From the NCBI GenBank assembly GCA_964513645.1, contig CAZENF010000003.1:127914-191913 (forward strand): a stretch of 64,000 nucleotides of DNA, in the 5' to 3' direction. Position 1 is the stretch's first letter. Every line of letters starts with the position of its first letter. A program made the translations under genes and the position numbers. The stretch comes from an uncultured Candidatus Saccharibacteria bacterium (GTDB taxonomy: Bacteria; Patescibacteriota; Minisyncoccia; 2-02-FULL-40-12; GWA2-44-9). Shown here piece after piece: positions 20,599-47,118 of the stretch. The notes under the pieces were generated by a model, which had not been told where the DNA came from, did no database searches, and saw only the letters and a list, made by a program, of their open reading frames with translations.

Positions 20599-20607
20599 TT
20601 ATGTACT

Positions 20608-21678: not shown

Positions 21679-21688
21679 AGTTCAGTCC

Positions 21689-23620: not shown

Positions 23621-23623
23621 ACT

Positions 23624-24091: not shown

Positions 24092-24092
24092 A

Positions 24093-24491
24093 ATGAACAG
24101 CCAATCCGGTTTTATCGCGATCATGTCATCCATCATCATTGTTCTGGTCGTAACCACAATGGCTTTTGCTTTGGGCATGCTCGGTTTCTTCAACCGTTTT
24201 AATATTTTGGACAGTCAGCTCAAGGAAACAAGTTTTGCTCTGGCCGAAGCCTGTGGCGATACTGCACTTTTGAATCTGGCTAACAATCCGAACTATACTC
24301 CGGTCAATGAGGTCGTCTCTTTCGGTTCAGAACAGTGTACCATTGTATCTTTGCAGTCGGATACTCCGGCTATCAATCAGACCACTATCAAAACCAAAGC
24401 GGTCGAAAATACCTCCGTATCGAACATCCAAATCGTCGTTAATTCCGATGACCTCTCGGTGATTACCTGGCAGGAAATACCTACTCTTTAA
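24093..24491 (+). CDS. Minor pilin-like protein (degenerate prepilin N-terminus)
   Basis: MNSQSGFIAIMSSIIIVLVVTTMAFALG; starts 1 nt after the previous pilin gene. Confidence 0.5.
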   Translation: MNSQSGFIAIMSSIIIVLVVTTMAFALGMLGFFNRFNILDSQLKETSFALAEACGDTALLNLANNPNYTPVNEVVSFGSEQCTIVSLQSDTPAINQTTIKTKAVENTSVSNIQIVVNSDDLSVITWQEIPTL

Positions 24492-26925: not shown

Positions 26926-26926
26926 A

Positions 26927-27625
26927 ATGAAAAAAATAAAAGTTACAACCAGCTGGGATGACGGCCATATGCTCGACATCCGTATCGCTAAACTCTTGAG
27001 AAAATACAACCTTAAGGGGACGTTTTTTATTTCTCCCAAGGACAGGGAGCTTTCTCCGACCGAACGTTTGACTGGCGGGGAGATAAAAATGCTGTCCAAA
27101 GAATTTGAGATCGGCGCACATACGATGACGCATCCGCTTTTAACCCGCGTTGAGGACCATATCGCCTATAAGGAAATCCTTGATTCCAAGAATTATCTTG
27201 AAAAGATCCTCCACAAACCGGTTAGAAGTTTTTGTTATCCCGGAGGTTTTTATAAAAAGAAACACCAACTTATCCTAAAAAAGCTCGGCTTTAAGTTAAG
27301 CAGGACAGTCAGCAGATTCGAGACTGAAACTGGTTCGAATTTGTTTGCTGTCCCGACAACTGTCCACGCCTACCGTCATTGGTCGGATATCGTTCCGATA
27401 TTTAAAAATGCCGGCTTCAGAAAATTCCTTTCCCGATATCTGAATTGGGATGAACTGGCCATATCCATGTTCGACAAAATAGCCGAGACCGGAGGCGTTT
27501 TTCATCTATGGGGTCATTCCTGGGAAATAGAAAAAAACAATGACTGGGAAAGATTGGAACGAGTTTTTAAACATATTTCAAATCACGCTAACGCCAAATA
27601 TATAACCAATGGAGACGTCGCCTAA
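26927..27625 (+). CDS. Polysaccharide deacetylase (CE4 / NodB homology domain)
   Basis: TTSWDDGHMLDIRIAKLLRKYNLKGTFFI (TFDDG-like motif 1), GAHTMTHP (motif 2 His); starts 2 nt after the upstream gene. Confidence 0.65.
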   Translation: MKKIKVTTSWDDGHMLDIRIAKLLRKYNLKGTFFISPKDRELSPTERLTGGEIKMLSKEFEIGAHTMTHPLLTRVEDHIAYKEILDSKNYLEKILHKPVRSFCYPGGFYKKKHQLILKKLGFKLSRTVSRFETETGSNLFAVPTTVHAYRHWSDIVPIFKNAGFRKFLSRYLNWDELAISMFDKIAETGGVFHLWGHSWEIEKNNDWERLERVFKHISNHANAKYITNGDVA

Positions 27626-30600
27626 AACAATTCTGCTTGTCGCTCCGTATTTTCCTCCTGACGGCGGCGGTTTAGAACGCTATGCCTTCGAGATCGCCAA
27701 GCGTCTCGCTAAAGGCTACAACTGGCGCATCGTCGTGATGGTGTCCGGCAAAAAATATGGTGAGGATACTAAAGAAGAATCAAACGGCCTGACGATATAC
27801 CGATTAGGATATAGTCTCAAAATTTCTAATACTCCATTAGGATTTTTGTGGTTTGGTAAAATTCGCAAAATTTTAAAGACTGAAAAACCAGATATCATAA
27901 ACATCCACACTCCTGTTCCGGGTATCGGAGATATAACTTCTTTTTTAGCGGGCAGCATCCCGACCGTGGTTACATACCATACCGGCAGCATGCTTAAGAG
28001 TAAGATCTTGCCGGATATTGCTGTCCGGTTATATGAGTACGGGCCTATGAGATTACTTCTGAACCAGGCCAAACATATAATTTGTTCGTCTGACTTTGTC
28101 CGTTTTAATTTTCTTGGGCGCTATATTCATAAAAGCACTACTATCACTCCTGCGGTCGATGTAGATATATTTAAGCCAGATGTCTCAAAAAAAGCTAAAG
28201 ACCCGACTGTATTGTTTGTCGCAGGTCTTGGCCATTCAGAACAGTACAAAGGTCTTGCTACTCTTTTGAATGCCATTTCGATGGTCAAAAATGATATTTC
28301 GAATATCCGACTTATTGTGGCCGGAGACGGGGATATGCGCTCAGAATACGAATCCCAAGCGGAAAAATTAGGAATCGGAAGCTCTGTAGATTTCAGAGGT
28401 AAATTAAGCAATGGCAAATTAGTTGCGGCTTATCAGGAAGCTCACATTTTTGTCTTACCGACATCAAATGACAGTTTTCCTTTAACCATCCTCGAAGCTA
28501 TGGCAACAGAATTGCCTGTGGTCTCAACCAGGATCGGTAGCATACCTTCTATAATTGAAAGCGGTCAAGACGGCTTCTTAATTAACGGATTTACTGCAGA
28601 GGCCGTAGCTTCTGATATATCGAAGATAATTAAAGACGAAATCGTTAAATTGAATTTTGGTCTTGCTGGTCGTAAAAAAGTATTAGATAAGTTTAATTGG
28701 AAATTGCGTGCTGATCAATATCAAAACGTTCTGTCATCTATTTCAGAATTTAAATTAAGGACAGTTCGAAAAATAGCTATTGTAACTCCATATTTTTATC
28801 CCAAGATTGGCGGACTTGAAAATTATGCTCTTGAAATGGGCAGAGCTTTAAGGCGCGACGGTAACGATATTTTTGTCATTACCAGTAATCATTTAAACAA
28901 AAAATGGCAATACGAAGAAATAGAAGGTATGAAGATTTATCGCATGCCAAGATTGTTTAAGATATCGAACACGCCGGTAAATCCTTTATGGTATTTATGG
29001 GTCTGGCGTATTTTAAGGCTTGAAAGACCAGATCTTATCAATGCCCATACCCCTGTTCCATTTATTGCCGATGTGACCGAAAGAGTAAGGGGCAATATAC
29101 CCCTTGTTTTAAATTATCACAATGATCTTGTGAAAAGTAATTTGTTTGCAGATCTGCTTTGTCGCATATCCTATATCTTTATGATAAACAAAACACTGCG
29201 TGATGCAGATAAGATAATAGCGACATCTCAATATTACGCTTCGCAATCCAGTTATTTAAGGCCGCTAATCAGTAAAATTGATTTTGTTCCGCCCGGAGTA
29301 GATATTAATAGATATAAACTCAATCTTGATGCACGCTATTTTAAAGAACGTTTTAAAGATTTTCGCACTGTGCTTTTTGTTGGTCAATTGGATAAAACCC
29401 ACAGACACAAAGGTCTGGACGATATAATAAAAGCCGTTGCCGAACTGAGGTCGTCGATAAAAAATATTAAACTTGTTGTTGTGGGTAAGGGTAATAATAT
29501 TGATTCATATAAAAAATATGCTGCTTCTCTTGGTATTGAAAATCAAGTAAGTTTCGAGGGGTTTGTTGAAGATGATGTATTGCCACAATATTATGCGGGA
29601 GCGGACGTTTTGGTCTTGCCGTCCAAAGATAAGTCAGAAGGTTTCGGGATGGTTATAACTGAGGCAGCTGCCTGCGGTACGCCAGCTGTTGCAAGTAGAA
29701 TCGGAGGAATCCCGGCAGCTCTAATAGACGGAGAGACCGGTATCCTGGTTTCACCTAATAATGTTTTACAACTTTCTGCGGCCATGAAAAAAATACTGGA
29801 CAATGGAACTTTTGCCAAAAAGTTAGGTGATAATGCCAGTTTGCGTATTAAAAAAGAGTTTGCATTATCGGTAGTAACAAGCAAATTTGTGGATATAATT
29901 TGTAAGATCGAGAAGAAAATTTCTATACTGCAAGTAGTGCCTTATTATCCACCCCACATAGGAGGAATGGAATTAAGGGTCAGAGATTTATCTACAAACT
30001 TGGTTAAGGAAAAAGTTGATGTTAATGTCATCACTTCTAACATTGGCGCTCAAAGCGGTTATTCTGAACAGAACGGTGTCAAGGTTAACTATCTGCCAGC
30101 ATTCAATTTTGCTAATACTCCATTTACCCCGGGACTTATATGGTACTTGCTTACTGTAAAAAAGCCCGATGTGTTTCACATACACATATCTCAAGCTTTT
30201 TTTCCGGAAATAGCTGCTATTGTTGCGAAAATAAGAGGTATTCCATACATAACCCATATACGTTTACTAGTTGAAGCATCAGGAGTTTTCGGAATTCTTC
30301 TGCCGATATACAGATATTTTGTATTAAAGCCGGTACTTCTTGGCTCAAAATACGTCATAACTTTGACAGAAGACGATAAGGAAATAGTGAATAATAAATT
30401 TAAGGTCCCGTTACCACGGATAAAAGTAATTCCAAACGCTACAGATTTTGGAATCATTGACTCACCAAGAACTATAACCAAACCTCTCAATATCCTTGCT
30501 GTTGGACGTATATCTCTTCAAAAAAATTATTCATTCATGTTGCAGGTTATGAGTGAATTCAAGAAAATATATGGCCCTGATTTTAAGTTAAAAATTGTTG

Positions 30601-31025
30601 GTACTGGTGACGGTTTATATAACCTTAAAAACGAGGCTGAAAAATTAAATCTCAAAAATAATATTCTATTCTTAGACGAAAAAATAGGTTCAGAACTGGA
30701 AGACATATACAGCAAATCTGATATTTTTCTGCATACATCTACTAAAGAAGGTTTTGGTACTGTTTTTATTGAAGCCATGACCAAGGGCTTGCCAGTGGTA
30801 GCTTCAAATATCCCTGGTTCACGTAATGTGATTATGAATGGAAGGAACGGCTTGTTAAGTGATTTTTCCTCTGAGGATATGGCTAAGAAGCTCGAACTTT
30901 TGTGCAGGGATCAATCCTTATACCAAAAAATCAGTGAAAATAATATTTCAGATGTTAAAAAATACAATTGGGACAATGTAGCGACTGATACGATCAACAC
31001 TTACTTACATGCAAGAAATTTTTAA
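27609..31025 (+). CDS. Triple GT4 glycosyltransferase: three complete tandem GT4 modules in one 1138-aa polypeptide
   Basis: Module starts: TILLVAPYFPPDGGGLERYAFEIA; KIAIVTPYFYPKIGGLENYALEMGRAL; ISILQVVPYYPPHIGGMELRVRDLS. Three C-terminal nucleotide-sugar motifs (DSFPLTILEAMATELPVVST; SEGFGMVITEAAACGTPAVAS; KEGFGTVFIEAMTKGLPVVAS). Confidence 0.75.
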   Translation: METSPKTILLVAPYFPPDGGGLERYAFEIAKRLAKGYNWRIVVMVSGKKYGEDTKEESNGLTIYRLGYSLKISNTPLGFLWFGKIRKILKTEKPDIINIHTPVPGIGDITSFLAGSIPTVVTYHTGSMLKSKILPDIAVRLYEYGPMRLLLNQAKHIICSSDFVRFNFLGRYIHKSTTITPAVDVDIFKPDVSKKAKDPTVLFVAGLGHSEQYKGLATLLNAISMVKNDISNIRLIVAGDGDMRSEYESQAEKLGIGSSVDFRGKLSNGKLVAAYQEAHIFVLPTSNDSFPLTILEAMATELPVVSTRIGSIPSIIESGQDGFLINGFTAEAVASDISKIIKDEIVKLNFGLAGRKKVLDKFNWKLRADQYQNVLSSISEFKLRTVRKIAIVTPYFYPKIGGLENYALEMGRALRRDGNDIFVITSNHLNKKWQYEEIEGMKIYRMPRLFKISNTPVNPLWYLWVWRILRLERPDLINAHTPVPFIADVTERVRGNIPLVLNYHNDLVKSNLFADLLCRISYIFMINKTLRDADKIIATSQYYASQSSYLRPLISKIDFVPPGVDINRYKLNLDARYFKERFKDFRTVLFVGQLDKTHRHKGLDDIIKAVAELRSSIKNIKLVVVGKGNNIDSYKKYAASLGIENQVSFEGFVEDDVLPQYYAGADVLVLPSKDKSEGFGMVITEAAACGTPAVASRIGGIPAALIDGETGILVSPNNVLQLSAAMKKILDNGTFAKKLGDNASLRIKKEFALSVVTSKFVDIICKIEKKISILQVVPYYPPHIGGMELRVRDLSTNLVKEKVDVNVITSNIGAQSGYSEQNGVKVNYLPAFNFANTPFTPGLIWYLLTVKKPDVFHIHISQAFFPEIAAIVAKIRGIPYITHIRLLVEASGVFGILLPIYRYFVLKPVLLGSKYVITLTEDDKEIVNNKFKVPLPRIKVIPNATDFGIIDSPRTITKPLNILAVGRISLQKNYSFMLQVMSEFKKIYGPDFKLKIVGTGDGLYNLKNEAEKLNLKNNILFLDEKIGSELEDIYSKSDIFLHTSTKEGFGTVFIEAMTKGLPVVASNIPGSRNVIMNGRNGLLSDFSSEDMAKKLELLCRDQSLYQKISENNISDVKKYNWDNVATDTINTYLHARNF

Positions 31026-32931
31026 TAAAAACACATTAATAGGGCAAATAAGCGCATACTATCCGCCCCACATAGGCGGAATTGAAAATGTGGTTGAGGC
31101 TGTTAGTAGGGAATTATCTGTGATGGGTCGGAATGTACAGGTGATTACAGCATCTAACTCACACTTATCAGAAAAAAACCATCCTCGTATAATCGGGTTG
31201 AAATATTTTGAAATTGCTCATGTACCTTTTACTCCCGGGCTTCTTTGGTATCTTTTGATGTTGCCCAAAAATTCTTTAATGCATCTTCATATTGCTCATG
31301 CATTTTTTCCAGAGCAAGTATTTATTGCTTCAAAAATAAGGAAGATACCATATATAGTTCATTTTCATCTCGACGTAGGACCATCGACTTTTTTAGGACC
31401 CCTATTCTTGTTATATAAAAAGATTGTCTGGGGGCCTGTTTTGCGCAGCGCAAGTAAGGTTATCGTTTTATCAAATGAACAATTAAGTTTGGTTTCCAGC
31501 AAGTATGGGGTTAAGAAAGAAAATATCGTCATTGTTTCTAATGGTGTGGGCCAAGAATTTATTAAGATCGGTAAGGAGCGTAAATCGTTTAGCAAAACTC
31601 TGCGTCTTCTGTCCGTCGGTCGTTTAGCAATACAAAAACGTCCGGAACGGCTATTGTATGCCATGTTGTCGTTGAATGTTCCTGTACATATGACTTTTGT
31701 TGGGGACGGTGAAGATAGAGAAAAACTTGAAACATTGGCCCGTGAATTGAAACTGACCAATGTCACTTTTGTCGGAAAAAAATTCGGAGACGAATTACTT
31801 GAGTATTACCGCAATTCAGATGTCTTTTTAATATCTTCAGATGAAGAGGGGATGCCCTTAGTGGTACTCGAAGCCATGGCTTCCGGTCTGCCTGTTATTG
31901 GTACGGATGTCATCGGTACACGTGAACTTGTAAAAGATACAGGGTTGCTTGTAGCCGAGCCATACCTCCAGAATTTTACATATGCCATAAGTAAACTTCA
32001 TTATAATCCAGAATTAGTAAAAGAATTGTCACAAAAAAGTGTTGAGAAAGCCAGTTCTTATACTTGGGCCAGTGCGGTTGAAAAAATAACTAAAATTTAT
32101 ACCGATATTTTAAAAAATGATGTTGTCTCACAAAATCGTAACCGGGAAATTGAGTTCTGGGACAATGTTAGCAAGAGAGATAAAGAATGGATTGTCAGTA
32201 CACCAAAGGAAGAAATCGAACAATTTATAGTTGATAAAATACGGAGAGGAAATACCAGATGGTGGGAGCCGATGATTGGCAAGTTAGAGGGCAAAAAAAT
32301 ATTAGACATAGGGTGTGGTACAACTTTTTTTGCGACATACTGGTCGTTGACGGGTAATGATTCTTTTGGTTCCGACTATTCACCAGAAACTATCAAAACA
32401 AATAATCTTTTACACGAAAAATTAGGATTGAAAAAGAATTTTTATGTTGCTTCGTCCGAGAAAATAGATGCAGCGGATAACTCTTTGGATGTAGTGCATA
32501 TGCGTTGGGTAATACATCATATACCACCAGAATTACAAAATAGCTCTATGTATGAGATAAAACGAGTTCTTAAACCTGGCGGAAAACTTATCGTATTTGA
32601 AACCAATTATGCCTACCCATTTAGATGGATAGTTCAGACACCGATATTGCGTAGTTTAAATTTTTTAAGACATTACGCTATAAATAAAGGTTGGTTAGAC
32701 CCAGAAGAAAAAGCTCTAACCAACGAAGGATATATAAATCTTATTGAGAATAATGGCTTTAAGATAAATATTGTTGACCACGATTTTACGTTCTTCTACT
32801 ACCCAGTAAGTTTATTGACCCGAAATGAATTCATAAGAAACTTAGTTCGGGAGTTTGATAATACAATCAGATCAATTATATCGGATAGGTTTAGTAAGGA
32901 TATTAAAATAATTGCAGAAAAATATGAATGA
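31009..32931 (+). CDS. GT4 glycosyltransferase fused to a C-terminal class I SAM-dependent methyltransferase
   Basis: N-terminal ISAYYPPHIGGIENVV...EGMPLVVLEAMASGLPVIGT. C-terminal ILDIGCGTTFFATYW (MTase motif I), LDVVHMRWVIHHI, LKPGGKLIVFE (motif post-II/III). Overlaps upstream by 17 nt. Confidence 0.75.
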   Translation: MQEIFNKNTLIGQISAYYPPHIGGIENVVEAVSRELSVMGRNVQVITASNSHLSEKNHPRIIGLKYFEIAHVPFTPGLLWYLLMLPKNSLMHLHIAHAFFPEQVFIASKIRKIPYIVHFHLDVGPSTFLGPLFLLYKKIVWGPVLRSASKVIVLSNEQLSLVSSKYGVKKENIVIVSNGVGQEFIKIGKERKSFSKTLRLLSVGRLAIQKRPERLLYAMLSLNVPVHMTFVGDGEDREKLETLARELKLTNVTFVGKKFGDELLEYYRNSDVFLISSDEEGMPLVVLEAMASGLPVIGTDVIGTRELVKDTGLLVAEPYLQNFTYAISKLHYNPELVKELSQKSVEKASSYTWASAVEKITKIYTDILKNDVVSQNRNREIEFWDNVSKRDKEWIVSTPKEEIEQFIVDKIRRGNTRWWEPMIGKLEGKKILDIGCGTTFFATYWSLTGNDSFGSDYSPETIKTNNLLHEKLGLKKNFYVASSEKIDAADNSLDVVHMRWVIHHIPPELQNSSMYEIKRVLKPGGKLIVFETNYAYPFRWIVQTPILRSLNFLRHYAINKGWLDPEEKALTNEGYINLIENNGFKINIVDHDFTFFYYPVSLLTRNEFIRNLVREFDNTIRSIISDRFSKDIKIIAEKYE

Positions 32932-35303
32932 ATAAAGTGCGTATTAAAATCTCGACAATATTAATTGTATCCATAGTTTGGTGGGCGGTCTTTGTGTGCC
33001 TGTCTTTGCTTCAGTTTAATCCGTTTGAAATTCTGAACATTACGGGTTTTCTTTTTCTAATTATTATTCCAGGCCTCTTAACCGTTTTGACTTTGGGTTT
33101 GGCCAATCTTGAATTCTGGGCAGCATCTGCTTTTGTTGTGGCATTCAGTATTTTTGAACTGATGTTAACCGCTCTTCTTGGCAACACCTTTTTGCCTTAT
33201 ATTGGTTTTCCACATCCGTTCCTGCCGAATATACTTATGACCCAGGTCTCGGTCCTGTTCTGGGTCCTGATTGGCATAAATTTATACGACGGAAATAAAT
33301 TTGAATTTAATATCCCGCGCTATTTTATTTTCAAAGACTTTAAGAATTTCTGCTTTGCCACTCTTTCGGTCTTGTTTGTTGTCTTAAGTATTTTCGGCGC
33401 TATACGGCTGAATAACGGGGCAAGTAATATTCTGACTATGATTATGCTCGGTTCTATGGGTCTTTATTTTGCTGTGATGCTTTTTAATCAGGATAAGTTC
33501 GAGGAGAACACGATACTTACAGGTTTGTATTTTATTGCTTTAGCTCTTCTTTTAATGACGAGTCTGCGTGGTTGGTATATTACCGGGCATGATATTCAGT
33601 CTGAATTCAAGGTTTTTCAGTTGCTTAAGGAAGATGCAGTCTGGAATATTGCGGCCTATCGTGATGCATACAATGCCTGTTTAAGCATTACTATTCTTCC
33701 GTCGATATTTTCATTCTTGCTCCGCATTCCTGACCAATACATATATAAACTTCTTTTCCAGATAATATTTGCCTTTTCTGTACCGGTTATATACATGACT
33801 GGACGCAAATGGGCAGGTCCGAGAATTTCTCTCCTTGGAATTTTATATTTCATCGGATTTCCAACATTTTTCACTGATATGCCGTTTCTTATTCGCCAGG
33901 AGACCGCCTTCCTGTTCTATGGGCTTATGCTCTATTCAATATTTGCAGCTGATCTTGAAATATTTACACGCCGGATGCTTTTTATCCTTATGGGCTTCGG
34001 TGTAATATTTTCCCACTACTCTACTACATATACGGTTTTGATGATATTTGGTTTAGCTGTTTTTTTCCGGCCAATACTTATCAAACTATTTGAAAGATTT
34101 GAAGACTCATATCTTGTCAAAAAATCAGGACTTGCGTCTTTGCTTGCTTATAACAGTCATGAAAAAGGTAAGATTACTATGGGCATGATTTTTCTCTTAC
34201 TTGCGGCGAGCTTTTTCTGGACGTCCAGTATCACTCAGACAGGAGGAGGTTTATCCAAAGTAATAAATGAGACAGTCTCAGCAGTGCAAAACGGTTTTGG
34301 AGAGGGGAACCGCTCGATTGATATAAATACGCTTCTTAGTTTCAGCCATCCTGACCAAAACCAAGAAATGCAGGGGTTTATCAAAAATTCAATAGGTAAG
34401 ATACGTGCCCAAGCAAATCCGGGCATATTTTATCCCGAAAAATCTTATAGCCAATACTCATTCTCCGCCTTACCGCAGGAATTAGTGCCTTTAACAGGCG
34501 GAGCTCAATGGCTGATTAATCACGGTATAAACATCGGAAAAATTATGACACTGTTTGGTTCCATTCTCGGAAAGCTGATAGAGGTTCTGGCTCCTTTGGG
34601 TATGATACATGTTTTGTTCAAAAAGAAGGTAGTTACATACATAGATGATGAGATCTATCTTATATCATTTTTCTCATTTGTGTTTATTCTTATGAACATC
34701 GTTTTGCCGGTGCTCTCGACTGAATACGGAATATTCCGTGCAATGCAGCAAGCAATGTTCATTATTGCCCCTATTATAGTATTGGGCAGTATGTCGTTGG
34801 GGGATATTTTGGCCAAAATTATCAGACATTCTAAAACAGCAATTATTTTTGCCACGCTTATGGCTCTGGTATTTTTCACTTATTCCACCTCTTTTGACCG
34901 CGAACTTATCGGCGGCTATTCAGCGGTTCTCCATTTAAGTAATTACGGTACCTATTATGACAACTATCTTATTCATGATGTTGAGGTTGTTGGTGTAGAA
35001 TGGATAACCAATATAGCTACAGCCAACCCGGAGAACATCAACGGAGTCCGGCTCTCGGTTCAAACCGACAGATATTCACGGGCAAAATTCGCATCATTAA
35101 CTACCTTGTCGACGGACAATGATATTTTTCCTGGGGTAGTTAGGAAATCGGCTTATGTATTCTTAAACCTGGCTAACGTAACCAAACAGCGTGCCGTAGC
35201 GTTCTATAATGGCGACCCTATTGCTTATGCTTATCCTGTAAAATTTTTGGATGAAAATAAAAACCTTATCTATGACAGCAACGGAGCCAGGGTTTATAAA
35301 TAA
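32928..35303 (+). CDS. Large polytopic membrane protein (putative GT-C-type glycosyltransferase, polymerase or YfhO-like)
   Basis: 791 aa. More than 12 predicted TM helices in two blocks separated by a predicted extracytoplasmic region, plus a 150-aa C-terminal soluble domain. No signature motif recognised. Overlaps upstream by 4 nt. Confidence 0.4.
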   Translation: MNKVRIKISTILIVSIVWWAVFVCLSLLQFNPFEILNITGFLFLIIIPGLLTVLTLGLANLEFWAASAFVVAFSIFELMLTALLGNTFLPYIGFPHPFLPNILMTQVSVLFWVLIGINLYDGNKFEFNIPRYFIFKDFKNFCFATLSVLFVVLSIFGAIRLNNGASNILTMIMLGSMGLYFAVMLFNQDKFEENTILTGLYFIALALLLMTSLRGWYITGHDIQSEFKVFQLLKEDAVWNIAAYRDAYNACLSITILPSIFSFLLRIPDQYIYKLLFQIIFAFSVPVIYMTGRKWAGPRISLLGILYFIGFPTFFTDMPFLIRQETAFLFYGLMLYSIFAADLEIFTRRMLFILMGFGVIFSHYSTTYTVLMIFGLAVFFRPILIKLFERFEDSYLVKKSGLASLLAYNSHEKGKITMGMIFLLLAASFFWTSSITQTGGGLSKVINETVSAVQNGFGEGNRSIDINTLLSFSHPDQNQEMQGFIKNSIGKIRAQANPGIFYPEKSYSQYSFSALPQELVPLTGGAQWLINHGINIGKIMTLFGSILGKLIEVLAPLGMIHVLFKKKVVTYIDDEIYLISFFSFVFILMNIVLPVLSTEYGIFRAMQQAMFIIAPIIVLGSMSLGDILAKIIRHSKTAIIFATLMALVFFTYSTSFDRELIGGYSAVLHLSNYGTYYDNYLIHDVEVVGVEWITNIATANPENINGVRLSVQTDRYSRAKFASLTTLSTDNDIFPGVVRKSAYVFLNLANVTKQRAVAFYNGDPIAYAYPVKFLDENKNLIYDSNGARVYK

Positions 35304-35304
35304 T

Positions 35305-38300
35305 ATGAAATTCATAATCGTAAATTCATTTCACAGAGACGACAAAGGTGACGCAGCGCTCACCCATGTTTTGATCGATCAGCTTTTATCCATCGACCCG
35401 AAGGCCGACATTGCTGTTTCGAGCATGGAGGAACCGTCCAACTACCCTTCATTTTATAAGGGACGCAATATCGGTTCTATCGAGCTTTATTCATCCTCAC
35501 AAATTCACCCCGGCTTGAGCCATATATTTTACAAAGTGTACTCGTTCTTAGCATTGTTTTTAACCGCCGAGGCTGGTAAAAAATTCTCATGGGTATTATC
35601 CAAAGACCTCGCTAAGATATACGAAGAATACAGAATAGCTGATATGATAATTTCTGTCGGAGGCGGATACTTTACAACTAAGCCTAACTTTGGCAGCCGT
35701 CTGCATTTGCTGTTTGCTCTTGAAACGTTAATGCTTTGCAAACGCATGGGCCTTAAAGTTGTTACCGCTCCGGTATCGGTCGGGCCGTTTCAGTATTCAT
35801 ACGAAGCCAGATATGCTTCCCGAATACTTAAAAAAATGGACTTGGTGATGTTGCGGGAAGATGTAAGTAAGAAATATTTTGTTGATAAGGAAGACAACCT
35901 GCCGGAAAACATTATTCGTGTACCTGACAGCGCTTTTGCTTTTAATCCGGAAGGGGATTTTGATTTGCGCGGTCTGGTTAAGGTAAAACCTGAACAAAAA
36001 ATTCTTATTTTAAGCGTACGCAACTGGCTCTTGTCGGATAAACAATCAGTTTACGAAAAAGCCCATGCCGATCTAATTGACCACATTGCTCAAAAATATC
36101 CGGATATTTTGCCAGTATTCATAAATCAATGCACCTTTCCTGATGTCAGTGAAGATGACCGTCTTGTTGTCGAAAGGATAATGGCGATGTCCAAGTCGAA
36201 AAAAGCGGCGTTTATTGCCGAAGATCTCGACTATATAAAGGTAAAACTTGCATATAAGCAGGCGGATTTTGTGATAGGTACGAGATTTCATGCCATGGTA
36301 TTCGGTCTGGCTTATCAGGTACCGGGAATTGCAATTGAGTATGAACATAAAACCCGCGGTATTATGCGTGACTTAGGTCTTGAAGAATGGGTAATTTCTA
36401 TTAGCAAAGTAACTTCAGAAAAACTTATTCAGCTATTCGGCGATATAGTAAAATTCCGAGAATTTTATAAAGAGCATTTGAAGAAGATAATGCCAGGGTA
36501 TAGTCACTCCACCGACAACGCCGTGAATATACTTTTAAATGTACTTCGAAAAAGAAACGAAGTTTATGTTCCCGGTAAAATAAGTCAAAAAATTAATAAA
36601 ATAATTTCTAAATTATATAACGACAGCTTATACAGAAATTCTTTTTATCTTATATTGGCCACCGCCGTTTTAGCCGGATTTGGATTTTTCTTCTGGCTCA
36701 TCAGTGCCCATTATATTTCGGCGGAGCAGATAGGAATTGCTACTGCTCTTATCTCGGCAATGAATATTATTGCCATTTTAAGTTTGATAGGTTTTGACAG
36801 CGCTATTGTCAGGTTTTTGTGGCATTCAACTAAGCGGAATGACAAACTCAATACCGCAATTATCTTGGTTGGTTCGGCTGCAACCCTGTTAAGCACAGCT
36901 TTCCTGTTGTTCTTGCCTTATATATCACCTAAGCTCGAATTTATCAGAAATAGTCCGCTAACTCTTTTTGCATTCATAATTTTCTGTGTCATGTCGTCTA
37001 TAAATATCCTTACCGATGCTGTTTTTTTGGCGTATCGAAAAACTGATTTTTCAATGATTATAAATACGATCTTCAGTTTCGTTAAAATGCTGTTGCCTTT
37101 GCTTTTTGTAAGATGGGGTGCATTTGGGATATTTTCAGCCGCTGCCATCGGCCAGTCGGTCGGGTTCATTTTGAGTATTTTTGCGATGATATGGAAATTT
37201 GATTATAAACCTAAATTTGTTGTGAATATGGAAATAGTCCGCGAGGTCTGGGATTATTGCGCCGCTAATTATGTGGCCGGTATTTTTAACCTTATCCCGG
37301 TAATGCTTTTGCCCATAATTATTACTAATCACCTCGGTTCGGCCCAAGCGGCCTATTTCTATATCGTTATGATGATAGCTAACCTCCTTTATGTTATTCC
37401 GCAGGCCGCCAATCGTTCTCTTTTTGCCGAGGGAGCTTTTGATGAAAAATCTTTCCATAAAAACATAGACAAAGCCGTTAAGATGATAGGCATATTACTT
37501 TTGCCGGCAATAATTATCTTTATTCTGGGCGGCAATTTTATACTTTCATTTTTCGGTAAAAATTATTCCGCCGAGGGCATCAATTTCTTTTATCTTGTTA
37601 TTTTTTCAGGTTTATCGGTAAGCATGTATTCTCTCTCAAACTCATTGTACCGGGTCAAGAAACAACTTACCCCGCTTATTATTTCAAACGCTGTCTATGC
37701 CTTCACGATCTTAGCTACCGCTTATCTCTTGCTTGATCACGGTCTGGTCGGCATTGGTCTTGCCTGGTTTGCCGGTAATACTTTGGCCTGTGTCGGATAT
37801 TTATTTTATATGAAAGAAGCTGAATATAAAATGATAGGCCGCGGTTGGCAGTATACGGTCTATGATATGGGAAATAGCAGAGTAGAAAAGAAGTATAATT
37901 CAATTTTTTTGTCCTATTTTATGATGTTTAAGGACGCGTTCAGGTATTTAAGGATGCCGGACCTGGCTTTCAGGAAGTATTATCGGGAAACTCAAAAAAT
38001 AGCCATGAACTCTCTTGAAAAAGTAATGGCTTCTCCTCTTGATAAAAATTTGTTCGGTAATCCGAAAATGATAGGAACTGTTGGATATGAGCAGGACCAC
38101 CTTAAGTCTCTTGGTAAGTATTTTATGGAACATAGCGCGGACGAATCAAAGGATAAGATAGACCGGGTGGTCAAATTTTGTCTGATGCTGTTCGAGCACT
38201 CATTGGCGGAAAAATATTTTAATATAGCAGACAATTTTGGTCTGGATGCTTCAGGTAATATCGTGTTGATAGATCTTGGGGAAATTATTGATTCGCGGGA

Positions 38301-38424
38301 AGAAATATCCGTTCAGATAAAAAACCGGGCATGGTCCGCCCCGGACGTTATTTCCGAGTTTCCGGAAAAACTACGCGGGTATTTTGTCCGGTCAATGGAT
38401 AATGCATTTGCCAATAAAATATAA
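35305..38424 (+). CDS. Fusion protein: polysaccharide pyruvyl transferase (CsaB/WcaK family) + Wzx-like MOP flippase + C-terminal soluble domain
   Basis: N-terminal ISVGGGYFTT...DFVIGTRFHAMVFGLAYQVPGIAIEYEHKTRG (PS_pyruv_trans). Middle: at least 12 TM with Wzx/polysaccharide-biosynthesis-protein pattern. C-terminal 240 aa unassigned. Start taken at ATG 35305 (2 nt after upstream stop); the track start at 35251 overlaps the upstream gene. Confidence 0.6.
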   Translation: MKFIIVNSFHRDDKGDAALTHVLIDQLLSIDPKADIAVSSMEEPSNYPSFYKGRNIGSIELYSSSQIHPGLSHIFYKVYSFLALFLTAEAGKKFSWVLSKDLAKIYEEYRIADMIISVGGGYFTTKPNFGSRLHLLFALETLMLCKRMGLKVVTAPVSVGPFQYSYEARYASRILKKMDLVMLREDVSKKYFVDKEDNLPENIIRVPDSAFAFNPEGDFDLRGLVKVKPEQKILILSVRNWLLSDKQSVYEKAHADLIDHIAQKYPDILPVFINQCTFPDVSEDDRLVVERIMAMSKSKKAAFIAEDLDYIKVKLAYKQADFVIGTRFHAMVFGLAYQVPGIAIEYEHKTRGIMRDLGLEEWVISISKVTSEKLIQLFGDIVKFREFYKEHLKKIMPGYSHSTDNAVNILLNVLRKRNEVYVPGKISQKINKIISKLYNDSLYRNSFYLILATAVLAGFGFFFWLISAHYISAEQIGIATALISAMNIIAILSLIGFDSAIVRFLWHSTKRNDKLNTAIILVGSAATLLSTAFLLFLPYISPKLEFIRNSPLTLFAFIIFCVMSSINILTDAVFLAYRKTDFSMIINTIFSFVKMLLPLLFVRWGAFGIFSAAAIGQSVGFILSIFAMIWKFDYKPKFVVNMEIVREVWDYCAANYVAGIFNLIPVMLLPIIITNHLGSAQAAYFYIVMMIANLLYVIPQAANRSLFAEGAFDEKSFHKNIDKAVKMIGILLLPAIIIFILGGNFILSFFGKNYSAEGINFFYLVIFSGLSVSMYSLSNSLYRVKKQLTPLIISNAVYAFTILATAYLLLDHGLVGIGLAWFAGNTLACVGYLFYMKEAEYKMIGRGWQYTVYDMGNSRVEKKYNSIFLSYFMMFKDAFRYLRMPDLAFRKYYRETQKIAMNSLEKVMASPLDKNLFGNPKMIGTVGYEQDHLKSLGKYFMEHSADESKDKIDRVVKFCLMLFEHSLAEKYFNIADNFGLDASGNIVLIDLGEIIDSREEISVQIKNRAWSAPDVISEFPEKLRGYFVRSMDNAFANKI

Positions 38425-38432
38425 ACTGAACC

Positions 38433-39638
38433 ATGAAAATATCCAACATTCGAACGAAGATAGATAGTGACACCGTTACTCTGATGGCCGACTGCAAGAT
38501 AAGGCCGGTAGGTATTGACACAGTATATTTTAAATTCCCACTTAAATATAGGAATTTTATCTATGAAGATGCAAGTCCTTTCGCTGCGGCTTTATTGATA
38601 CCTTCGATGTATTTTGATCAATCTCTCGAGATAGACGGAACGATAAGCGCCAAACTCTATGAAGGGATGCACAAGGCCCAAGACGTTCTTTTGGGCTGGA
38701 ACTTAAAAGACCCAAGGTTAAATAGAATAGAGATAAAAGTTAAGAATACTGCCAGGGATTCCGCATCTCCGGATAAAGTTGCAATGTTTTTTTCCGGAGG
38801 GGTGGACTCCTTTCATACTTTTCTTAAACATGAACATGACAAAATTGACCCCCTCACACACTTAATACTGGTTAATGGCAATGATATCGATATTCGCAAC
38901 AAACAATTATGGTCAGAAACAAGTGAGAGAATCGGAGCGGTCGCCAAAGAAACGGGCAAGGAAGTGATAGAAGTTGAAACAAACGTTCAGGTATTGACAG
39001 AGCCGATGTTAAACCCTGAATATACTCACGGTGGAAATCTCGGAGCGATGGGGTTATGCCTTCGAGGCGGACTTAAAAAAATATACATTGCTTCAACTTT
39101 CAGCTATGAACAGAATATGCCGTACGGTTCGAGTCCGGAGCTTGATTATTTATGGAGCAGTGAAGTTTTACAATTTGAACACGACGGTGCCGAAACCATA
39201 AGAGTTAAGAAAGTTGAGGATTTCATTGCCAAATCCCCGCTTGCATTGAAATATCTACGGGTCTGTAACCGCAATGTCAAAGGTACTTATAATTGCGGCA
39301 AATGTGAAAAATGTACCCGTACAATGCTTAACTTATATATGGCCGGGGCGTTGGATAAGGCACAAACTCTCCCGCATATTATTGATCCCAAACTTTTGGC
39401 ATGTAATGTTTCTCTCGATGGTCCAACCAACGACAGTTATACGCGACTTCATAAGACTATGATCGAAAAGAATATCGATAAAGAACTTCGGGATGCGGTT
39501 AAGTGGGGAGTAGATAATATGATAACAGTCTCTCAAACCCCTAAAGAAAAAATTATCCGCGGGATGATACGCCTTGACCATATGTATTTAAGAGGTTTCC
39601 TGTTCAAGATATGGTTAAGTATCGTTCATCCGTATTAA
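38433..39638 (+). CDS. PP-loop ATP pyrophosphatase family protein with QueC-like C-terminal zinc motif (candidate sugar amidotransferase)
   Basis: FFSGGVDSFHTF (SGGxDS PP-loop) at about residue 115. C-terminal C-x9-CGKCEKC resembles the QueC zinc site. N-terminal 110 aa unassigned. Last gene of the co-directional glycan cluster. Confidence 0.45.
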   Translation: MKISNIRTKIDSDTVTLMADCKIRPVGIDTVYFKFPLKYRNFIYEDASPFAAALLIPSMYFDQSLEIDGTISAKLYEGMHKAQDVLLGWNLKDPRLNRIEIKVKNTARDSASPDKVAMFFSGGVDSFHTFLKHEHDKIDPLTHLILVNGNDIDIRNKQLWSETSERIGAVAKETGKEVIEVETNVQVLTEPMLNPEYTHGGNLGAMGLCLRGGLKKIYIASTFSYEQNMPYGSSPELDYLWSSEVLQFEHDGAETIRVKKVEDFIAKSPLALKYLRVCNRNVKGTYNCGKCEKCTRTMLNLYMAGALDKAQTLPHIIDPKLLACNVSLDGPTNDSYTRLHKTMIEKNIDKELRDAVKWGVDNMITVSQTPKEKIIRGMIRLDHMYLRGFLFKIWLSIVHPY

Positions 39639-39767: not shown

Positions 39768-39796
39768 TTGTAGAAACAGTTTTAAACTGCTACAAT
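39768..39796 (+). promoter_or_regulatory. Sigma70-like promoter (TTGTAG-17-TACAAT) overlapping the annotated ATG of the downstream gene
   Basis: ttgtag at 39768-39773, 17-nt spacer, tacaat at 39791-39796. If used, translation starts downstream (candidate ATG 39843, MNNNSEGK...). Confidence 0.4.
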
Positions 39797-42440
39797 GACA
39801 TCATTAAATTTAGCTTTTTCAGGCCAGGACTTACTATTTCCAATGAACAACAATTCGGAGGGAAAATTATACATTGCGGGTATCTTGGTTGCCTTGGCCG
39901 TCATAATATTGGCGGGATATTTCCTATCCCCGTTTTCGTTTACTTTTGATCTTGCTAATTTACACGGTTCTCTTCAGGGCGGGAAGAATCCTCAACAGTA
40001 CGCCGCTTTGGTTTCTCCCGGCCTTGATACAACTCCTCCGATTGTAAGTTCCTTCGATATGCAACCCCGGACTATCAGTGCGGGCAATTATGCCACCGCC
40101 TCTTTTAATGTTACCGACTCTGGTGGCTCTCATATTGTCCGTGTTGCTCTTAACCGTGCGCCGTATAGCTCCTCCGGTTGTAATGTCGCTGATAAGTCAA
40201 GTTGTGACTGGATAAGCGTTGCAAATTCAAATACTTCTTCTGGCCTCGATTCCTGGACCGGGACTTTGATGGATAACCCTGGCCAGGGTACTTGGTGGTA
40301 CGGTTTTATGGTGGTGGACGGTGCCAATAATTTCGGCTATGAACCGGCTACAGTCGAGGTCATAGTTACAGCTGCTGTTCCGACCCCGACTCCGGGTGCG
40401 GATACTATCAAACCCAAAGTAACTTCTTTTGATGTTCAACCCCGAAATATAAATGTTGGTAGCTCTGTTAAAGTTTCCTTTACAGTAGTTGATTCTGGTG
40501 GTTCACATTTGAGTCGTGTTGGTATCAATCGGGCTTTATATAATTCAACCAACTGCAATGCTTCGGTAAAAACCGGTTGTCAGTGGGTCAGTGGCGGAAG
40601 ATTGTATCCTACAAGCGGATTAGATTCATGGTCTTCAAGTGCTGATAATTCTCCTGCTCTTGGAACATGGTGGTATGGTATATATGTAACTGATAATGGC
40701 GGTAATTTCGGATACGAGCCATATCAGATACAGGTTATCGTAAATCCTGCCTCGACACCTACTGCAACTCCATCACCAACTGCGACTCCTACGCCCACAC
40801 CAACTCCGACACCGAGGCCGAGTTCAACGTCGGTTCCGACGCCTACGCCCGGTTCAGGAGGACCTGGACCTACTACGCCTCCGACACCTACTCCGACTCC
40901 GACACCTGTTCCGACCGGCAGCGACACTATAAGACCGAAAGTAAACGCTTTTGATGTTCAACCTCGAACCCTTAACGTTGGCGGTTCAGTTCTGGCAACC
41001 TTTACTGTTTCTGATACCGGTGGCTCTCACTTATCTAAAGTCGGCTTCAGTCGGGCATCATATAATTCTTCAAATTGCAGCGAAACAGTAAAAACCACCT
41101 GCCAGTGGGTCAGTTTAGCAAAGACAGCGACACCTTATACCGACAACTGGAATTCTTCCTGGGCCGATACTCCTTCCGCCGGAACCTGGTGGTATGGAAT
41201 GTCTGCGACAGATGGCGCCGGCAATGTTGGCTATGAACCGGCAACGCTCGAAGTGTTCGTGAATACTGTTTCTTCAACCCCGACTTCGACTCCTGTTCCG
41301 GTTCCTACTGCCACTCCAAGCCAAACTCCTGTTCCGACACCTGCCCCAACTCCAACTCCGATACCTACGCCCGTTCCTACGGCAATTCCGACACCGACTC
41401 CAACTCCGTCACCAACTGTAACCCAGAATTATTCTTTTGGTTTTTCTGTAGCTGAAAGTTTCCTACCTTTATCAAGTGCTGAACTAAATGCTCGTATGGA
41501 TGATTTAGTGGCTTTGCATATTGGCTGGCTAAGGTTTGATATCGACTGGTCATCAGTGCAAGGACTAAATTCAACAATCTTTGATTGGACAGCTATAGAT
41601 AATTTAATAAGTGCAGCCAATTCGCATCACATAAAGCTTATGCCGGTTATTGATTCGACTCCACCTTGGGCTCGGCCGGCTAATTGTACTTCTAATAAAT
41701 GGTGTCCGCCGGCTGATAATAATGCTTTCGCAAATTTTGCCAAAGCTGTTGTTCAACGTTATACACCTCAAGGAGTCCATACTTGGGAAATATGGAACGA
41801 ACCCAATATCAATAGTTTTTGGCAATCTGGCCCTAATTCATCAGCTTATGCAAATCTTTTGACGGCAACCTATAATGCGATCAAAAGCGTAGATTCTTCC
41901 GCAACTGTTATATCGGCAGGATTGGCTCCTGCCGCCACTCAAGGTTCAACTATATCGCCAGTAGATTTCTTAACCAGTATGTATCAGGCGGGAGCCAAAA
42001 ATTACTTTGACGCTGTCGGTTTTCATCCATATTCATTCCCGGCCATGCCTTCTTACTACGCGGTTTGGAATGCCTGGTCGCAGATGTCCTCTACACCCAC
42101 AAGTTTGCGAAGTGTAATGTCGGCCAACGGAGATTCGGCTAAACAGATATGGTTAACCGAATATGGCGCACCTACAGGAGGGCCAGGAGCCGTTGCAGAC
42201 GTTAATAATTATAACTTCTCGGCCAGCCCGGATCATGTTACCGAAGCATTACAAGCGTCGATGTATCAGGATTCTATTAATTTGGTCCGGGGCTATTCAT
42301 GGGCCGGACCAATGTTCTTCTATTCCTATAAAGACTTAGGTACCTCTTCGAGCACCAACGAGAACTTCTTTGGCGTAATAAGATATGACGGCACTCAAAA
42401 ACCGGCTTATCAGACGGTAAAACAACTACTCGCCCAATAG
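39795..42440 (+). CDS. Secreted multidomain glycoside hydrolase: three repeated ~115-aa beta-domains joined by Pro/Thr-rich linkers + C-terminal GH5-like (clan GH-A) catalytic domain
   Basis: N-terminal signal/TM; three repeats (FD(M/V)QPR..(V/A)SF.V.DSGGSH..RV...RA.Y.S..C.....C.W.S......TWWYG......N.GYEP....V.V); PTPTPTPTP linkers; catalytic EIWNEPN (acid/base) and IWLTEYGAPTGG (nucleophile) motifs. True start may be 39843. Confidence 0.7.
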   Translation: MTSLNLAFSGQDLLFPMNNNSEGKLYIAGILVALAVIILAGYFLSPFSFTFDLANLHGSLQGGKNPQQYAALVSPGLDTTPPIVSSFDMQPRTISAGNYATASFNVTDSGGSHIVRVALNRAPYSSSGCNVADKSSCDWISVANSNTSSGLDSWTGTLMDNPGQGTWWYGFMVVDGANNFGYEPATVEVIVTAAVPTPTPGADTIKPKVTSFDVQPRNINVGSSVKVSFTVVDSGGSHLSRVGINRALYNSTNCNASVKTGCQWVSGGRLYPTSGLDSWSSSADNSPALGTWWYGIYVTDNGGNFGYEPYQIQVIVNPASTPTATPSPTATPTPTPTPTPRPSSTSVPTPTPGSGGPGPTTPPTPTPTPTPVPTGSDTIRPKVNAFDVQPRTLNVGGSVLATFTVSDTGGSHLSKVGFSRASYNSSNCSETVKTTCQWVSLAKTATPYTDNWNSSWADTPSAGTWWYGMSATDGAGNVGYEPATLEVFVNTVSSTPTSTPVPVPTATPSQTPVPTPAPTPTPIPTPVPTAIPTPTPTPSPTVTQNYSFGFSVAESFLPLSSAELNARMDDLVALHIGWLRFDIDWSSVQGLNSTIFDWTAIDNLISAANSHHIKLMPVIDSTPPWARPANCTSNKWCPPADNNAFANFAKAVVQRYTPQGVHTWEIWNEPNINSFWQSGPNSSAYANLLTATYNAIKSVDSSATVISAGLAPAATQGSTISPVDFLTSMYQAGAKNYFDAVGFHPYSFPAMPSYYAVWNAWSQMSSTPTSLRSVMSANGDSAKQIWLTEYGAPTGGPGAVADVNNYNFSASPDHVTEALQASMYQDSINLVRGYSWAGPMFFYSYKDLGTSSSTNENFFGVIRYDGTQKPAYQTVKQLLAQ

Positions 42441-42670: not shown

Positions 42671-43783
42671 ATGAAAAAGCATTTACTCAACAAAAAATTC
42701 CTGTACGGATTGGTTGTTCTTTTTTTTATCATTCTGGTATTTACTTGGTATTCCGTCAGGAGCATGCCGGTTGTCGTTAATTTAAAAACTCCTCAACCCG
42801 CAAAGCTTAATTACCGTTTCGGTTTATCGGTCAGCCAGTCCTTGCTTTATAATTTAACCGATAACGAACTCAATTCCCGTTTAGACGATATTGCATCGAT
42901 GAACATTGGTTGGCTAAGATTTGATATCGACTGGTCTTCTGTCCAGCCGTCCGGTCCGGATTATTATGACTGGTCAGAAATTGATCGTCTCGTTGCAGGT
43001 GCGAACGTGAGAAATATAAAGCTCTTGCCGATAATCGACAATGTCCCGGCTTGGGCCAGGATTTCCGGATGTCATACTGCCTGGTGTCCGCCGGCAGATG
43101 ACAATACTTTTGCTAATTTTGTGTCAACTGTTGTAAGGCGGTACTCCTCCAAAGGCATTACCACTTGGGAAATATGGAATGAACCGAATATGAGAGGATT
43201 CTGGAAACCTGTACCTAACCCTGGAGCATATGCCGAACTTTTAAGAGCAGTATTCTTGGTGATAAAAAAACAGGAATCTTCCGCGACCGTTATTTTGGGC
43301 GGTCTCGGTTCAGCTGACCCTGATTACGGTGATATTTATGCCGCCGGTTTTTTGTCGTCGATTTATAAAGCCGGAGCCGGGCCGTATTTTGATGCGGTTG
43401 CATTTCATCCATACTCTTATCCCGGTGAACCTTCCTCTGATTTTCCGAGGAACAGTTGGCCCCAGATGCTTCAGACCGGTTCGGGTTTGCTTAGCGTGAT
43501 GGCTTCGAACGGAGACTCGTATAAAAAAATATGGTTGACCGAATTCGGCGCGCCGACTGGCGGTCCTGATTCCGTAACCGAAGACGGGCAGGCCTCGATA
43601 ATTCAGGATGCTGTCGGCTTGTGGCGGAACTATGACTGGGCAGGGCCTTTGTTCGTCTATACTTATAAGGATTCAGGCACCAATCCCAACACCAATGAAA
43701 ATTTCTTCGGCCTCCTCCGTTATAATGGTACTCAAAAGCCTGCATATAATTTGCTCAAAAACTTTGCAACTACGGTAAAGTAA
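42671..43783 (+). CDS. Membrane-anchored GH5-like (clan GH-A) glycosidase, paralog of the catalytic domain of the upstream gene
   Basis: NIGWLRFDIDWSSVQ, NIKLLPIIDNVPAWAR, TTWEIWNEPNMRGFW, YFDAVAFHPYSYP, IWLTEFGAPTGGP, NENFFGLLRYNGTQKPAY; block-for-block parallel to residues 520-881 of the upstream protein. Confidence 0.7.
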   Translation: MKKHLLNKKFLYGLVVLFFIILVFTWYSVRSMPVVVNLKTPQPAKLNYRFGLSVSQSLLYNLTDNELNSRLDDIASMNIGWLRFDIDWSSVQPSGPDYYDWSEIDRLVAGANVRNIKLLPIIDNVPAWARISGCHTAWCPPADDNTFANFVSTVVRRYSSKGITTWEIWNEPNMRGFWKPVPNPGAYAELLRAVFLVIKKQESSATVILGGLGSADPDYGDIYAAGFLSSIYKAGAGPYFDAVAFHPYSYPGEPSSDFPRNSWPQMLQTGSGLLSVMASNGDSYKKIWLTEFGAPTGGPDSVTEDGQASIIQDAVGLWRNYDWAGPLFVYTYKDSGTNPNTNENFFGLLRYNGTQKPAYNLLKNFATTVK

Positions 43784-46479: not shown

Positions 46480-47118
46480 ATGACGATGCCTAAACCGCTA
46501 TATTTTAAGATAGGATTGATATTGTTGCTGGTGGGTGTTGCCGGAATTCTTTTGCCTTTTATTTCTTTCGGCGTTTCGGACGATTATGCCACTCTCGAAG
46601 TAATAGCCCAAAATGAAGAAGCGCAAAATTCTCAAAACAAATTTCTTCAGCAGGTGAGTATAAGCCTGGCAACACCGACTCCTGTTCCGTCGGTCAAATT
46701 TGACCCGAACCACCTTAATGTTACCGATCGGCTGGTCATTTCAAAGATAGGCGTCGATATGCCATTGTTTGAATCTGATAAACTGTCGATACTCTGGAAA
46801 GGCGGCTGGGTTTTCCCGGGTACATCCACTCCGGATAAAGGAGGGAATACGGTAATTTTCGGACACCGTTTCCGTTATCTTCCGCCGATAAACAATACTT
46901 TTTTCTCTTTAGATAAGATACAAATGGATGATACTTTCACGGTTGTCTGGAAAGGGACGATATATCACTACCAGGTTATCGATAAAAAAGTCATCGAGCC
47001 GAGCGATTTTTCCATTTTAAGCCAGAGTTCCGAACAGGAAGTAACCCTGGTAACCTGTACACCCTTATGGACAAGCAAACAACGCCTGGTCGTAGTCGGC
47101 AAACTTTTGCCAAATTAA
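46480..47118 (+). CDS. Sortase family transpeptidase
   Basis: N-terminal TM; catalytic His (TVIFGHRF), TLxTC motif (EVTLVTCTP) and downstream Arg (QRLVVVG). Confidence 0.7.
   Translation: MTMPKPLYFKIGLILLLVGVAGILLPFISFGVSDDYATLEVIAQNEEAQNSQNKFLQQVSISLATPTPVPSVKFDPNHLNVTDRLVISKIGVDMPLFESDKLSILWKGGWVFPGTSTPDKGGNTVIFGHRFRYLPPINNTFFSLDKIQMDDTFTVVWKGTIYHYQVIDKKVIEPSDFSILSQSSEQEVTLVTCTPLWTSKQRLVVVGKLLPN

Follow-up and report, generated by a model that had tools for sequence, protein, structure and literature searches.

To our knowledge, every PP-loop enzyme characterised so far uses ATP to adenylate the oxygen of a carbonyl or carboxylate group and releases pyrophosphate (PPi), after which a nucleophile displaces AMP. 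AsnB-like glycan amidotransferases (e.g. WbpS) and NH3-dependent NAD synthetase are PP-loop enzymes that adenylate and amidate a carboxylate, while WbuX, PseA, WbpG and LfnA (TIGR03573; PDB 8wex) are PP-loop enzymes encoded in surface-glycan clusters. Enzymes of the QueC branch of this fold act on a carboxylate, with ammonia as the nucleophile in QueC and a protein amine in Cap9 and QatC (PMC13329287). A 2026 survey of the QueC family gives the canonical QueC signature as SGGxDS, YxQxHxxE, VPxRN, YPDC and C(x)8CxxCxxC, with Y35, R99, Y131 and Y189 essential and the PP-loop at residues 11-16 of the E. coli protein (PMC13329287). Here we analysed a QueC-like gene at 38433-39638 (forward strand) in a 64,000-nucleotide stretch, hereafter the window, from an uncultured Candidatus Saccharibacteria bacterium (contig CAZENF010000003.1). 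We refer to the product of this open reading frame (ORF) as the target protein, and to the product and its homologs as the target family. PP-loop ATP pyrophosphatases with a QueC-like core are already known as a kind of enzyme; the novelty of the target family lies in its three-domain architecture and in a specific association with polysaccharide pyruvyl transferases.

Pairing with polysaccharide pyruvyl transferases

Members of the target family are encoded within glycan clusters, where they specifically accompany polysaccharide pyruvyl transferases of the family PS_pyruv_trans (PF04230) and are in some cases fused to them. Among 77 immediate neighbours of distant homologs (30-39% identity), PF04230 was the commonest family by far (19 proteins), the others including the glycosyltransferase families GT2 (5) and GT4 (4), Asn_synthase (4), methyltransferases (3) and flippases (2); AsnB-like genes adjoin some family members. 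In the 56 loci flanked by 3 kb or more on each side, an iterated phmmer search placed a pyruvyl transferase within 3 kb in 27 cases and directly adjacent in 21. The value of 27/56 is a lower bound, since Pfam finds 7 more PS_pyruv_trans proteins within three genes in 25 'negative' loci. These bulk Pfam scans and the iterated search replaced a single-sequence phmmer search of the window's neighbours against 83 loci, which had under-detected partners. A recurrent neighbour of about 314 amino acids (aa), considered as a candidate new partner, was rejected because it is a short PS_pyruv_trans subfamily.

Ten long proteins contain the family domain; three of them are PS_pyruv_trans fusions (P0169, P0240, P0252), one carries a GT2 domain and one an S-adenosylmethionine (SAM) methyltransferase. 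The family member P0207 is fused to a methyltransferase resembling that encoded at 31009-32931 of the window.

The same partnership is seen in individual genomes. Close orthologs (loci L001-L003) retain the set of GT2/GT4, deacetylase, GT4 enzymes, DUF2206 protein, pyruvyl transferase, flippase, target-family protein and GH5-like protein. On plasmid p3 of Azospirillum brasilense Sp7 the pair forms an isolated two-gene module, pyruvyl transferase followed by target family, between unrelated genes, and in Gloeothece PCC 7822, Priestia megaterium, Gemmobacter aquarius and Pseudobutyrivibrio xylanivorans it lies inside glycan clusters. The membership of the Priestia protein in the target family was confirmed by hhalign at 99.9% probability. 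In the Nostoc, Haloterrigena and Paracoccus loci no pyruvyl transferase was present within the region viewed. Apart from the Paracoccus locus and the isolated Azospirillum module, all contexts examined in detail were related to glycans. No association with que genes was seen: the neighbours in the 8 annotated plasmid contexts and the 3 ortholog loci are glycan genes, and the dominant Pfam families among neighbours elsewhere are likewise of the glycan type, in contrast to the que-gene context of QueC.

Two of the plasmid clusters hold further genes beside the pair: a radical SAM protein and an 'F420 hydrogenase/dehydrogenase beta subunit C-terminal domain' protein in Pseudobutyrivibrio (L094 7355-8536), and a Mur ligase family protein and a formyltransferase in Gemmobacter (L093 6487-7812). 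These additional genes may encode further steps of the same modification.

The family is large and widely spread. A word-indexed search returned 529 relatives, nearly all of about 400 aa and none with a Pfam domain; all the named ones are labelled hypothetical. When 1.84 billion cluster representatives (50% identity) were searched exhaustively with a profile, 8,676 matched at E<=1e-3 and 3,249 at E<=1e-30, and a scan of one genome per species found the family in at least 583 genomes. These take in Patescibacteria, Actinomycetota (Williamsia, Streptosporangiaceae), Alpha-, Beta-, Gamma- and Delta-proteobacteria, Campylobacterota, Planctomycetota, Verrucomicrobiota, Chloroflexota, Acidobacteriota, Gemmatimonadota and Bathyarchaeia, to which plasmid searches add Cyanobacteria, Bacillota and haloarchaea; a search of phage genomes found no homologs. 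Cultured carriers include A. brasilense Sp7, P. megaterium, Gloeothece PCC 7822, Williamsia muralis and Aliagarivorans marinus; the orthologs of the first three have the accessions WP_035682648.1, WP_221785231.1 and WP_013334578.1, respectively. The target family has no Pfam or NCBIfam model and no solved structure. It is not described in the 2026 QueC-family survey (PMC13329287), and literature searches for DUF6395, and for PP-loop or QueC-like proteins with pyruvyl transferase or polysaccharide, returned nothing relevant to it.

Architecture and relation to known PP-loop families

The target gene is a complete ORF of 401 codons, and its ATG is the true start because homologs align from residue 1. 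With a maximal Kyte-Doolittle score of 0.89 over 19 residues the protein contains no transmembrane segment, and is therefore soluble and cytoplasmic. It has the PP-loop ATP pyrophosphatase fold in a three-part arrangement (Table 1). The original prediction had pointed to an SGGVDS PP-loop, a four-cysteine motif and an extra N-terminal domain of about 110 aa, and all of these were borne out. The PP-loop and the cysteine motif are conserved across 77 species-level homologs, whose alignment underlies the conservation counts given here, and the N-terminal extension is real because about 110 more residues precede the PP-loop than in QueC. The helical extension at the C terminus, also absent from QueC, had been missed. 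In the N-terminal domain, positions from about residue 46 on (DASPFAAALLxPSM) are kept family-wide, while residues 1-45, with a CKIR motif, are conserved in close relatives only. The FFSGGVDS motif directly follows strand 115-119, the first beta-strand of the core. The core shares its Rossmann-like alpha/beta/alpha fold with solved members of the PP-loop/adenine nucleotide alpha hydrolase superfamily, the closest solved folds being QueC and Cap9. A Foldseek search of the PDB gave no significant match, and sequence searches of the PDB, run with the target protein alone and with a family profile of 31 sequences, gave no real match, the lone hit, EPF2 at E 2.3, being spurious.

The two motifs are not chance occurrences because their key residues, F120, G123, D125, C278, C288, C291 and C294, are invariant across the 77 homologs. 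N287 and K293, beside the cysteines, are invariant as well, and together with D238, K260, R257, D251 and E244 they form a polar set that is invariant or nearly so across phyla. The spacing C(x)9CxxCxxC is found in 70/77 homologs and C(x)8 in 1/77. The target protein itself departs from the family consensus at several positions: H128, Q186, P195, S234 and N279 stand where the family has Y (68/77), R (65/77), W (73/77), H (62/77) and an aromatic residue (63/77), respectively. Some of these changes are common to close Patescibacteria-type relatives, and by local alignment residue 279 is the counterpart of the essential Y189 of E. coli QueC. The idea of a subclade with a covarying R186Q change and loss of W195 was rejected: among close relatives residue 186 varies between R, Q, N, K and Y, without strict covariation with W195, and these changes are therefore no evidence of inactivation. 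In P0122 and P0132 (719 and 548 aa) the family profile matches in two stretches, which suggests a tandem duplication and would fit a dimeric enzyme; QueC is a dimer.

How close is the family to QueC? Pfam and NCBIfam scans of the target protein at E<=10 returned neither PF06508 (QueC) nor any NCBIfam family, so that of the two families that the original prediction had proposed to compare, QueC and TIGR03573, neither matched. Across the family PF06508 matches are weak (33/77 members, best E 8e-5), and hhalign of family profiles against E. coli QueC gave 4-6% probability, with only the cysteine motif or only the PP-loop aligned. Against QueC (PDB 3bl5) the target protein shows 12% identity with no profile-level match. 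Its cysteine motif is in an equivalent position and aligns locally to that of E. coli QueC, but with a C-x9 rather than a C-x8 spacing. The substrate and catalytic motifs YxQxHxxE, VPxRN and YPDC occur in 0/77 members. The window does contain a tgt gene (tRNA-guanine transglycosylase), as the original prediction had noted, and its finding of no other que genes there also held: E. coli QueC, QueD, QueE and QueF probes found nothing at E<=10 in a six-frame translation of the 64 kb, and no que-type Pfam domains were present among the 39 other window ORFs scanned. A tgt without queC/D/E/F in the window is compatible with salvage of a queuosine precursor. Canonical QueC was thus rejected on three grounds: the lack of a profile match, of the substrate motifs and of que genes in the window.

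These observations also bear on annotation. The public name of family members is 'hypothetical protein', save for a Williamsia homolog to which UniProt automatically gives the names 'Queuosine biosynthesis protein QueC' and '7-cyano-7-deazaguanine synthase' (UniRef100_A0A495JYH3, A0ABU4EPK3), along with one 'adenine nucleotide alpha hydrolase family protein'. As no member carries the substrate motifs of QueC, the QueC names are probably a misannotation that could spread to other entries.

Other PP-loop families are equally separate. No close fold similarity to the solved N-acetyl sugar amidotransferase 8wex was found, and membership of TIGR03573 was rejected on this and on the lack of a profile match. 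A Cap9/QatC-type defence protein (type IV CBASS, QatABCD) was also rejected: the target protein has no PADLOC match at E<=10, no CD-NTase, Cap10 or QatA/B/D genes lie beside its gene, the family has no phage homologs, and the accessory domains of Cap9 and QatC are unlike its own.

The uncharacterised family DUF6395 (PF19932) is probably a distant sister of the target family. In the target protein this domain scores 12.6 bits against a gathering cutoff of 25 (E 0.14, aa 273-299), covering profile positions 36-61 of 174 over the cysteine motif, and weak matches occur in 24/77 members (best E 0.005). A DUF6395 protein is encoded on Priestia megaterium plasmid NZ_CP109861.1, a few kb from two tandem family members that follow a pyruvyl transferase (L088 7686-10299; L090 2293-3606). 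By eye its layout is like that of the target protein, with an N-terminal domain, YSGGVDS, a C-x8-C-x2-C-x2-C motif (CIRGNLNNPCLNCNKC) and a helical tail; hhalign against the target family gave 10% probability only.

Possible functions

That the family is paired with pyruvyl transferases across bacteria as well as archaea suggests a chemical modification of cell-surface sugars that has not been described so far. Pyruvyl transferases use phosphoenolpyruvate to place a 1-carboxyethylidene ketal on a repeat unit linked to undecaprenyl-PP (Und-PP) in the cytoplasm (WcfO; PMC6801904). In the window's glycan cluster, where no UDP-sugar dehydrogenase is encoded, this ketal is the only evident carboxylate. 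As the most economical reading we tentatively propose, with a confidence that stays short of even, that the target enzyme amidates the pyruvate ketal carboxylate on the Und-PP-linked repeat unit. The analysis shows the fold, motifs, conservation and gene partnership; the ATP chemistry, substrate, nucleophile and metal we infer by analogy with characterised PP-loop enzymes. ATP would bind at the PP-loop and the carboxylate would be adenylated with release of PPi, as in QueC, NAD synthetase, AsnB and Cap9, while the four cysteines would hold a structural zinc as in QueC. The carboxylate would most likely be that of the ketal added by the neighbouring pyruvyl transferase, and the reaction would take place at the cytoplasmic face, after the pyruvyl transferase has acted and before export by the fused flippase. 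Ammonia or another amine would attack the acyl-adenylate to yield an amide, and the negative charge of the ketal would be lost. The N- and C-terminal domains would recognise the lipid-linked glycan or the pyruvyl transferase.

Several observations weigh against this proposal. Amidated pyruvate ketals are not mentioned in a review of pyruvylation (PMC6801904), about 40% of the loci have no nearby pyruvyl transferase, and no glutaminase partner was seen. The broader idea that the family carries out an ATP-dependent derivatisation of pyruvate ketals on surface glycans, with the carboxylate converted to a carboxamide or ligated to another amine, is possible, though we hold it with rather low confidence. 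If true, the 'pyruvylation' inferred from PF04230 in many bacteria and archaea, Patescibacteria included, would be a neutral or cross-linked group and not an anionic one as assumed. Pyruvate ketals are a source of the negative charge of surface polysaccharides, the ligand of SLH-domain cell-wall proteins and a target of some lectins, antibodies and phages, and their further modification would alter charge, binding and antigenicity in many organisms. The finding overturns nothing; it points to a testable and possibly widespread glycan modification. Defining the family would also correct annotations, such as the occasional QueC mislabels in UniProt, and would extend the QueC-fold radiation, mapped recently for tRNA modification and phage defence, by a branch that modifies glycans.

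Other functions have to be weighed against amidation of the ketal. The adenylated glycan carboxylate could be attacked by an amine of a macromolecule or sugar, following the logic of Cap9/QatC; with glucosamine from the cluster's deacetylase, a peptidoglycan stem peptide or a protein N-terminus as nucleophile, such a ligase would cross-link or anchor the pyruvylated polymer. We consider this unlikely: the target protein is a cytoplasmic and predicted ATP-dependent enzyme, while anchoring to the cell wall takes place outside the membrane, and there is no conserved protein partner besides the pyruvyl transferase and nothing defence-like by PADLOC. The original prediction had suggested an ATP-dependent amidotransferase working on a sugar carboxylate, with WbuX/WbpS-like logic, or on another small molecule. 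This reading is partly supported, but membership of TIGR03573, the WbuX family, is not. A function of the WbuX/PseA/WbpG kind, in which an N-acetyl carbonyl would be adenylated and ammonia added to give an acetamidino sugar, would suit a PP-loop enzyme within a glycan cluster and the SGGxDSxY form of the P-loop, which is common to N-acetyl sugar amidotransferases and most of the target family (53/77 members) and is the form quoted for the WbpG-containing cluster (PMC13329287); given the profile and fold results above, we regard it as quite improbable.

The cysteine motif could bind a [4Fe-4S] cluster and the enzyme turn an adenylated carboxylate into a thiocarboxylate, as an iron-sulfur (Fe-S)-dependent sulfur transferase like LarE, TtuA or NcsA. 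This is very improbable, as Fe-S LarE/TtuA types have three dispersed cysteines (PMC13329287), whereas the C-x9-C-x2-C-x2-C motif follows the core at a helix start, matches the QueC zinc site C-x8-C-x2-C-x2-C and aligns locally with it; nor were sulfur-carrier or cysteine desulfurase genes seen nearby. The fusions and tight pairing suggest a physical complex, and the target protein departs from the consensus at several near-invariant positions, both of which would suit a non-catalytic or regulatory partner of the pyruvyl transferase that retains the PP-loop fold as nucleotide sensor or scaffold. Against this, the PP-loop, the four cysteines and the polar residue set are near-invariant across phyla, as is typical of an active enzyme, and the chance of such a role appears slim. 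Least of all do we expect a genuine QueC, or another 7-deazaguanine enzyme supplying the window's tgt. The original prediction had named a strong QueC match with the Que pathway nearby as the case for ordinary queuosine biosynthesis, and neither was found: the profiles, the substrate motifs and the que searches of the window described above were all negative, the context is glycan-related throughout the family, and tgt lies on the opposite strand to the target gene, in an unrelated neighbourhood.

The glycan cluster and its surroundings

The target gene is the last in a same-strand run of overlapping or abutting genes (25072-39638; Table 1), in agreement with the glycan-biosynthesis context originally described, with glycosyltransferases, a deacetylase, a DUF2206 protein and a pyruvyl transferase-flippase upstream. 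Translational coupling to this run had also been claimed, which is slightly overstated: the spacing is tight and clearly operonic, but the upstream stop codon (TAA 38422-38424) and the ATG at 38433 are separated by an 8-nt gap, with no overlap and no obvious Shine-Dalgarno sequence. An AT-rich spacer of 156 nt follows the target gene.

Table 1. Features of the target gene and of the window, with positions in the window
Feature	Position	Strand	Details
Envelope genes (type IV pilus, sortase and PMT set)	19384-24491; 46480-47118; 55198-56643; 59055-60434	+; +; -; -	
GT2+GT4	25072-26925	+	
Polysaccharide deacetylase	26927-27625	+	
Triple GT4	27609-31025	+	1138 aa, three GT4 modules
GT4 + SAM methyltransferase fusion	31009-32931	+	640 aa
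DUF2206 membrane protein	32928-35303	+	
Polysaccharide pyruvyl transferase fused to Wzx-type/Polysacc_synt flippase	35251-38424	+	1057 aa; pyruvyl transferase aa 32-366, multiple transmembrane segments aa ~463-838
Target gene	38433-39638	+	401 aa
N-terminal domain, family-specific alpha/beta	38433-38768	+	aa 1-112; order beta-beta-beta-alpha-alpha-beta-alpha-beta
PP-loop FFSGGVDS, ATP pyrophosphatase signature	38787-38810	+	aa 119-126; from sequence and conservation
Four-Cys motif, QueC-type putative Zn site	39264-39314	+	CNRNVKGTYNCGKCEKC; C278-x9-C288-G-x-C291-x2-C294; from sequence and conservation
C-terminal helical extension	39330-39635	+	aa 300-401, ~100 aa; helices 319-398; absent from QueC
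GH5/GH39-like proteins (two)	39795-42440; 42671-43783	+	conserved neighbours of orthologs
tgt	52016-53197	-	PF01702, E 4e-94

The fusion of pyruvyl transferase and flippase, which in the orthologous loci L001 and L002 are encoded as two separate genes, suggests coupling between pyruvylation and export, and is reminiscent of the CsaB/CsaA pair of Bacillus. The multi-domain glycosyltransferases of the run, the triple GT4 and the GT4-methyltransferase fusion, are unusual. The GH5/GH39-like proteins downstream could be polymer processing or chain-length enzymes, or wall-associated hydrolases; one such protein in a related locus (L005 11257-13428) has PG_binding_1 and fn3 domains.

GC content falls to 0.36-0.40 over 28-40 kb, compared with about 0.43-0.48 elsewhere in the window. 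This low-GC stretch matches the glycan operon, with the target gene at its end, and may reflect horizontal acquisition of the cluster or different constraints. Elsewhere the window encodes type IV pilus components (T2SSE ATPase, T2SSF, and a prepilin with an N_methyl motif), a sortase and two PMT-family protein O-mannosyltransferases, an envelope gene set typical of Patescibacteria-like or Gram-positive-like organisms.
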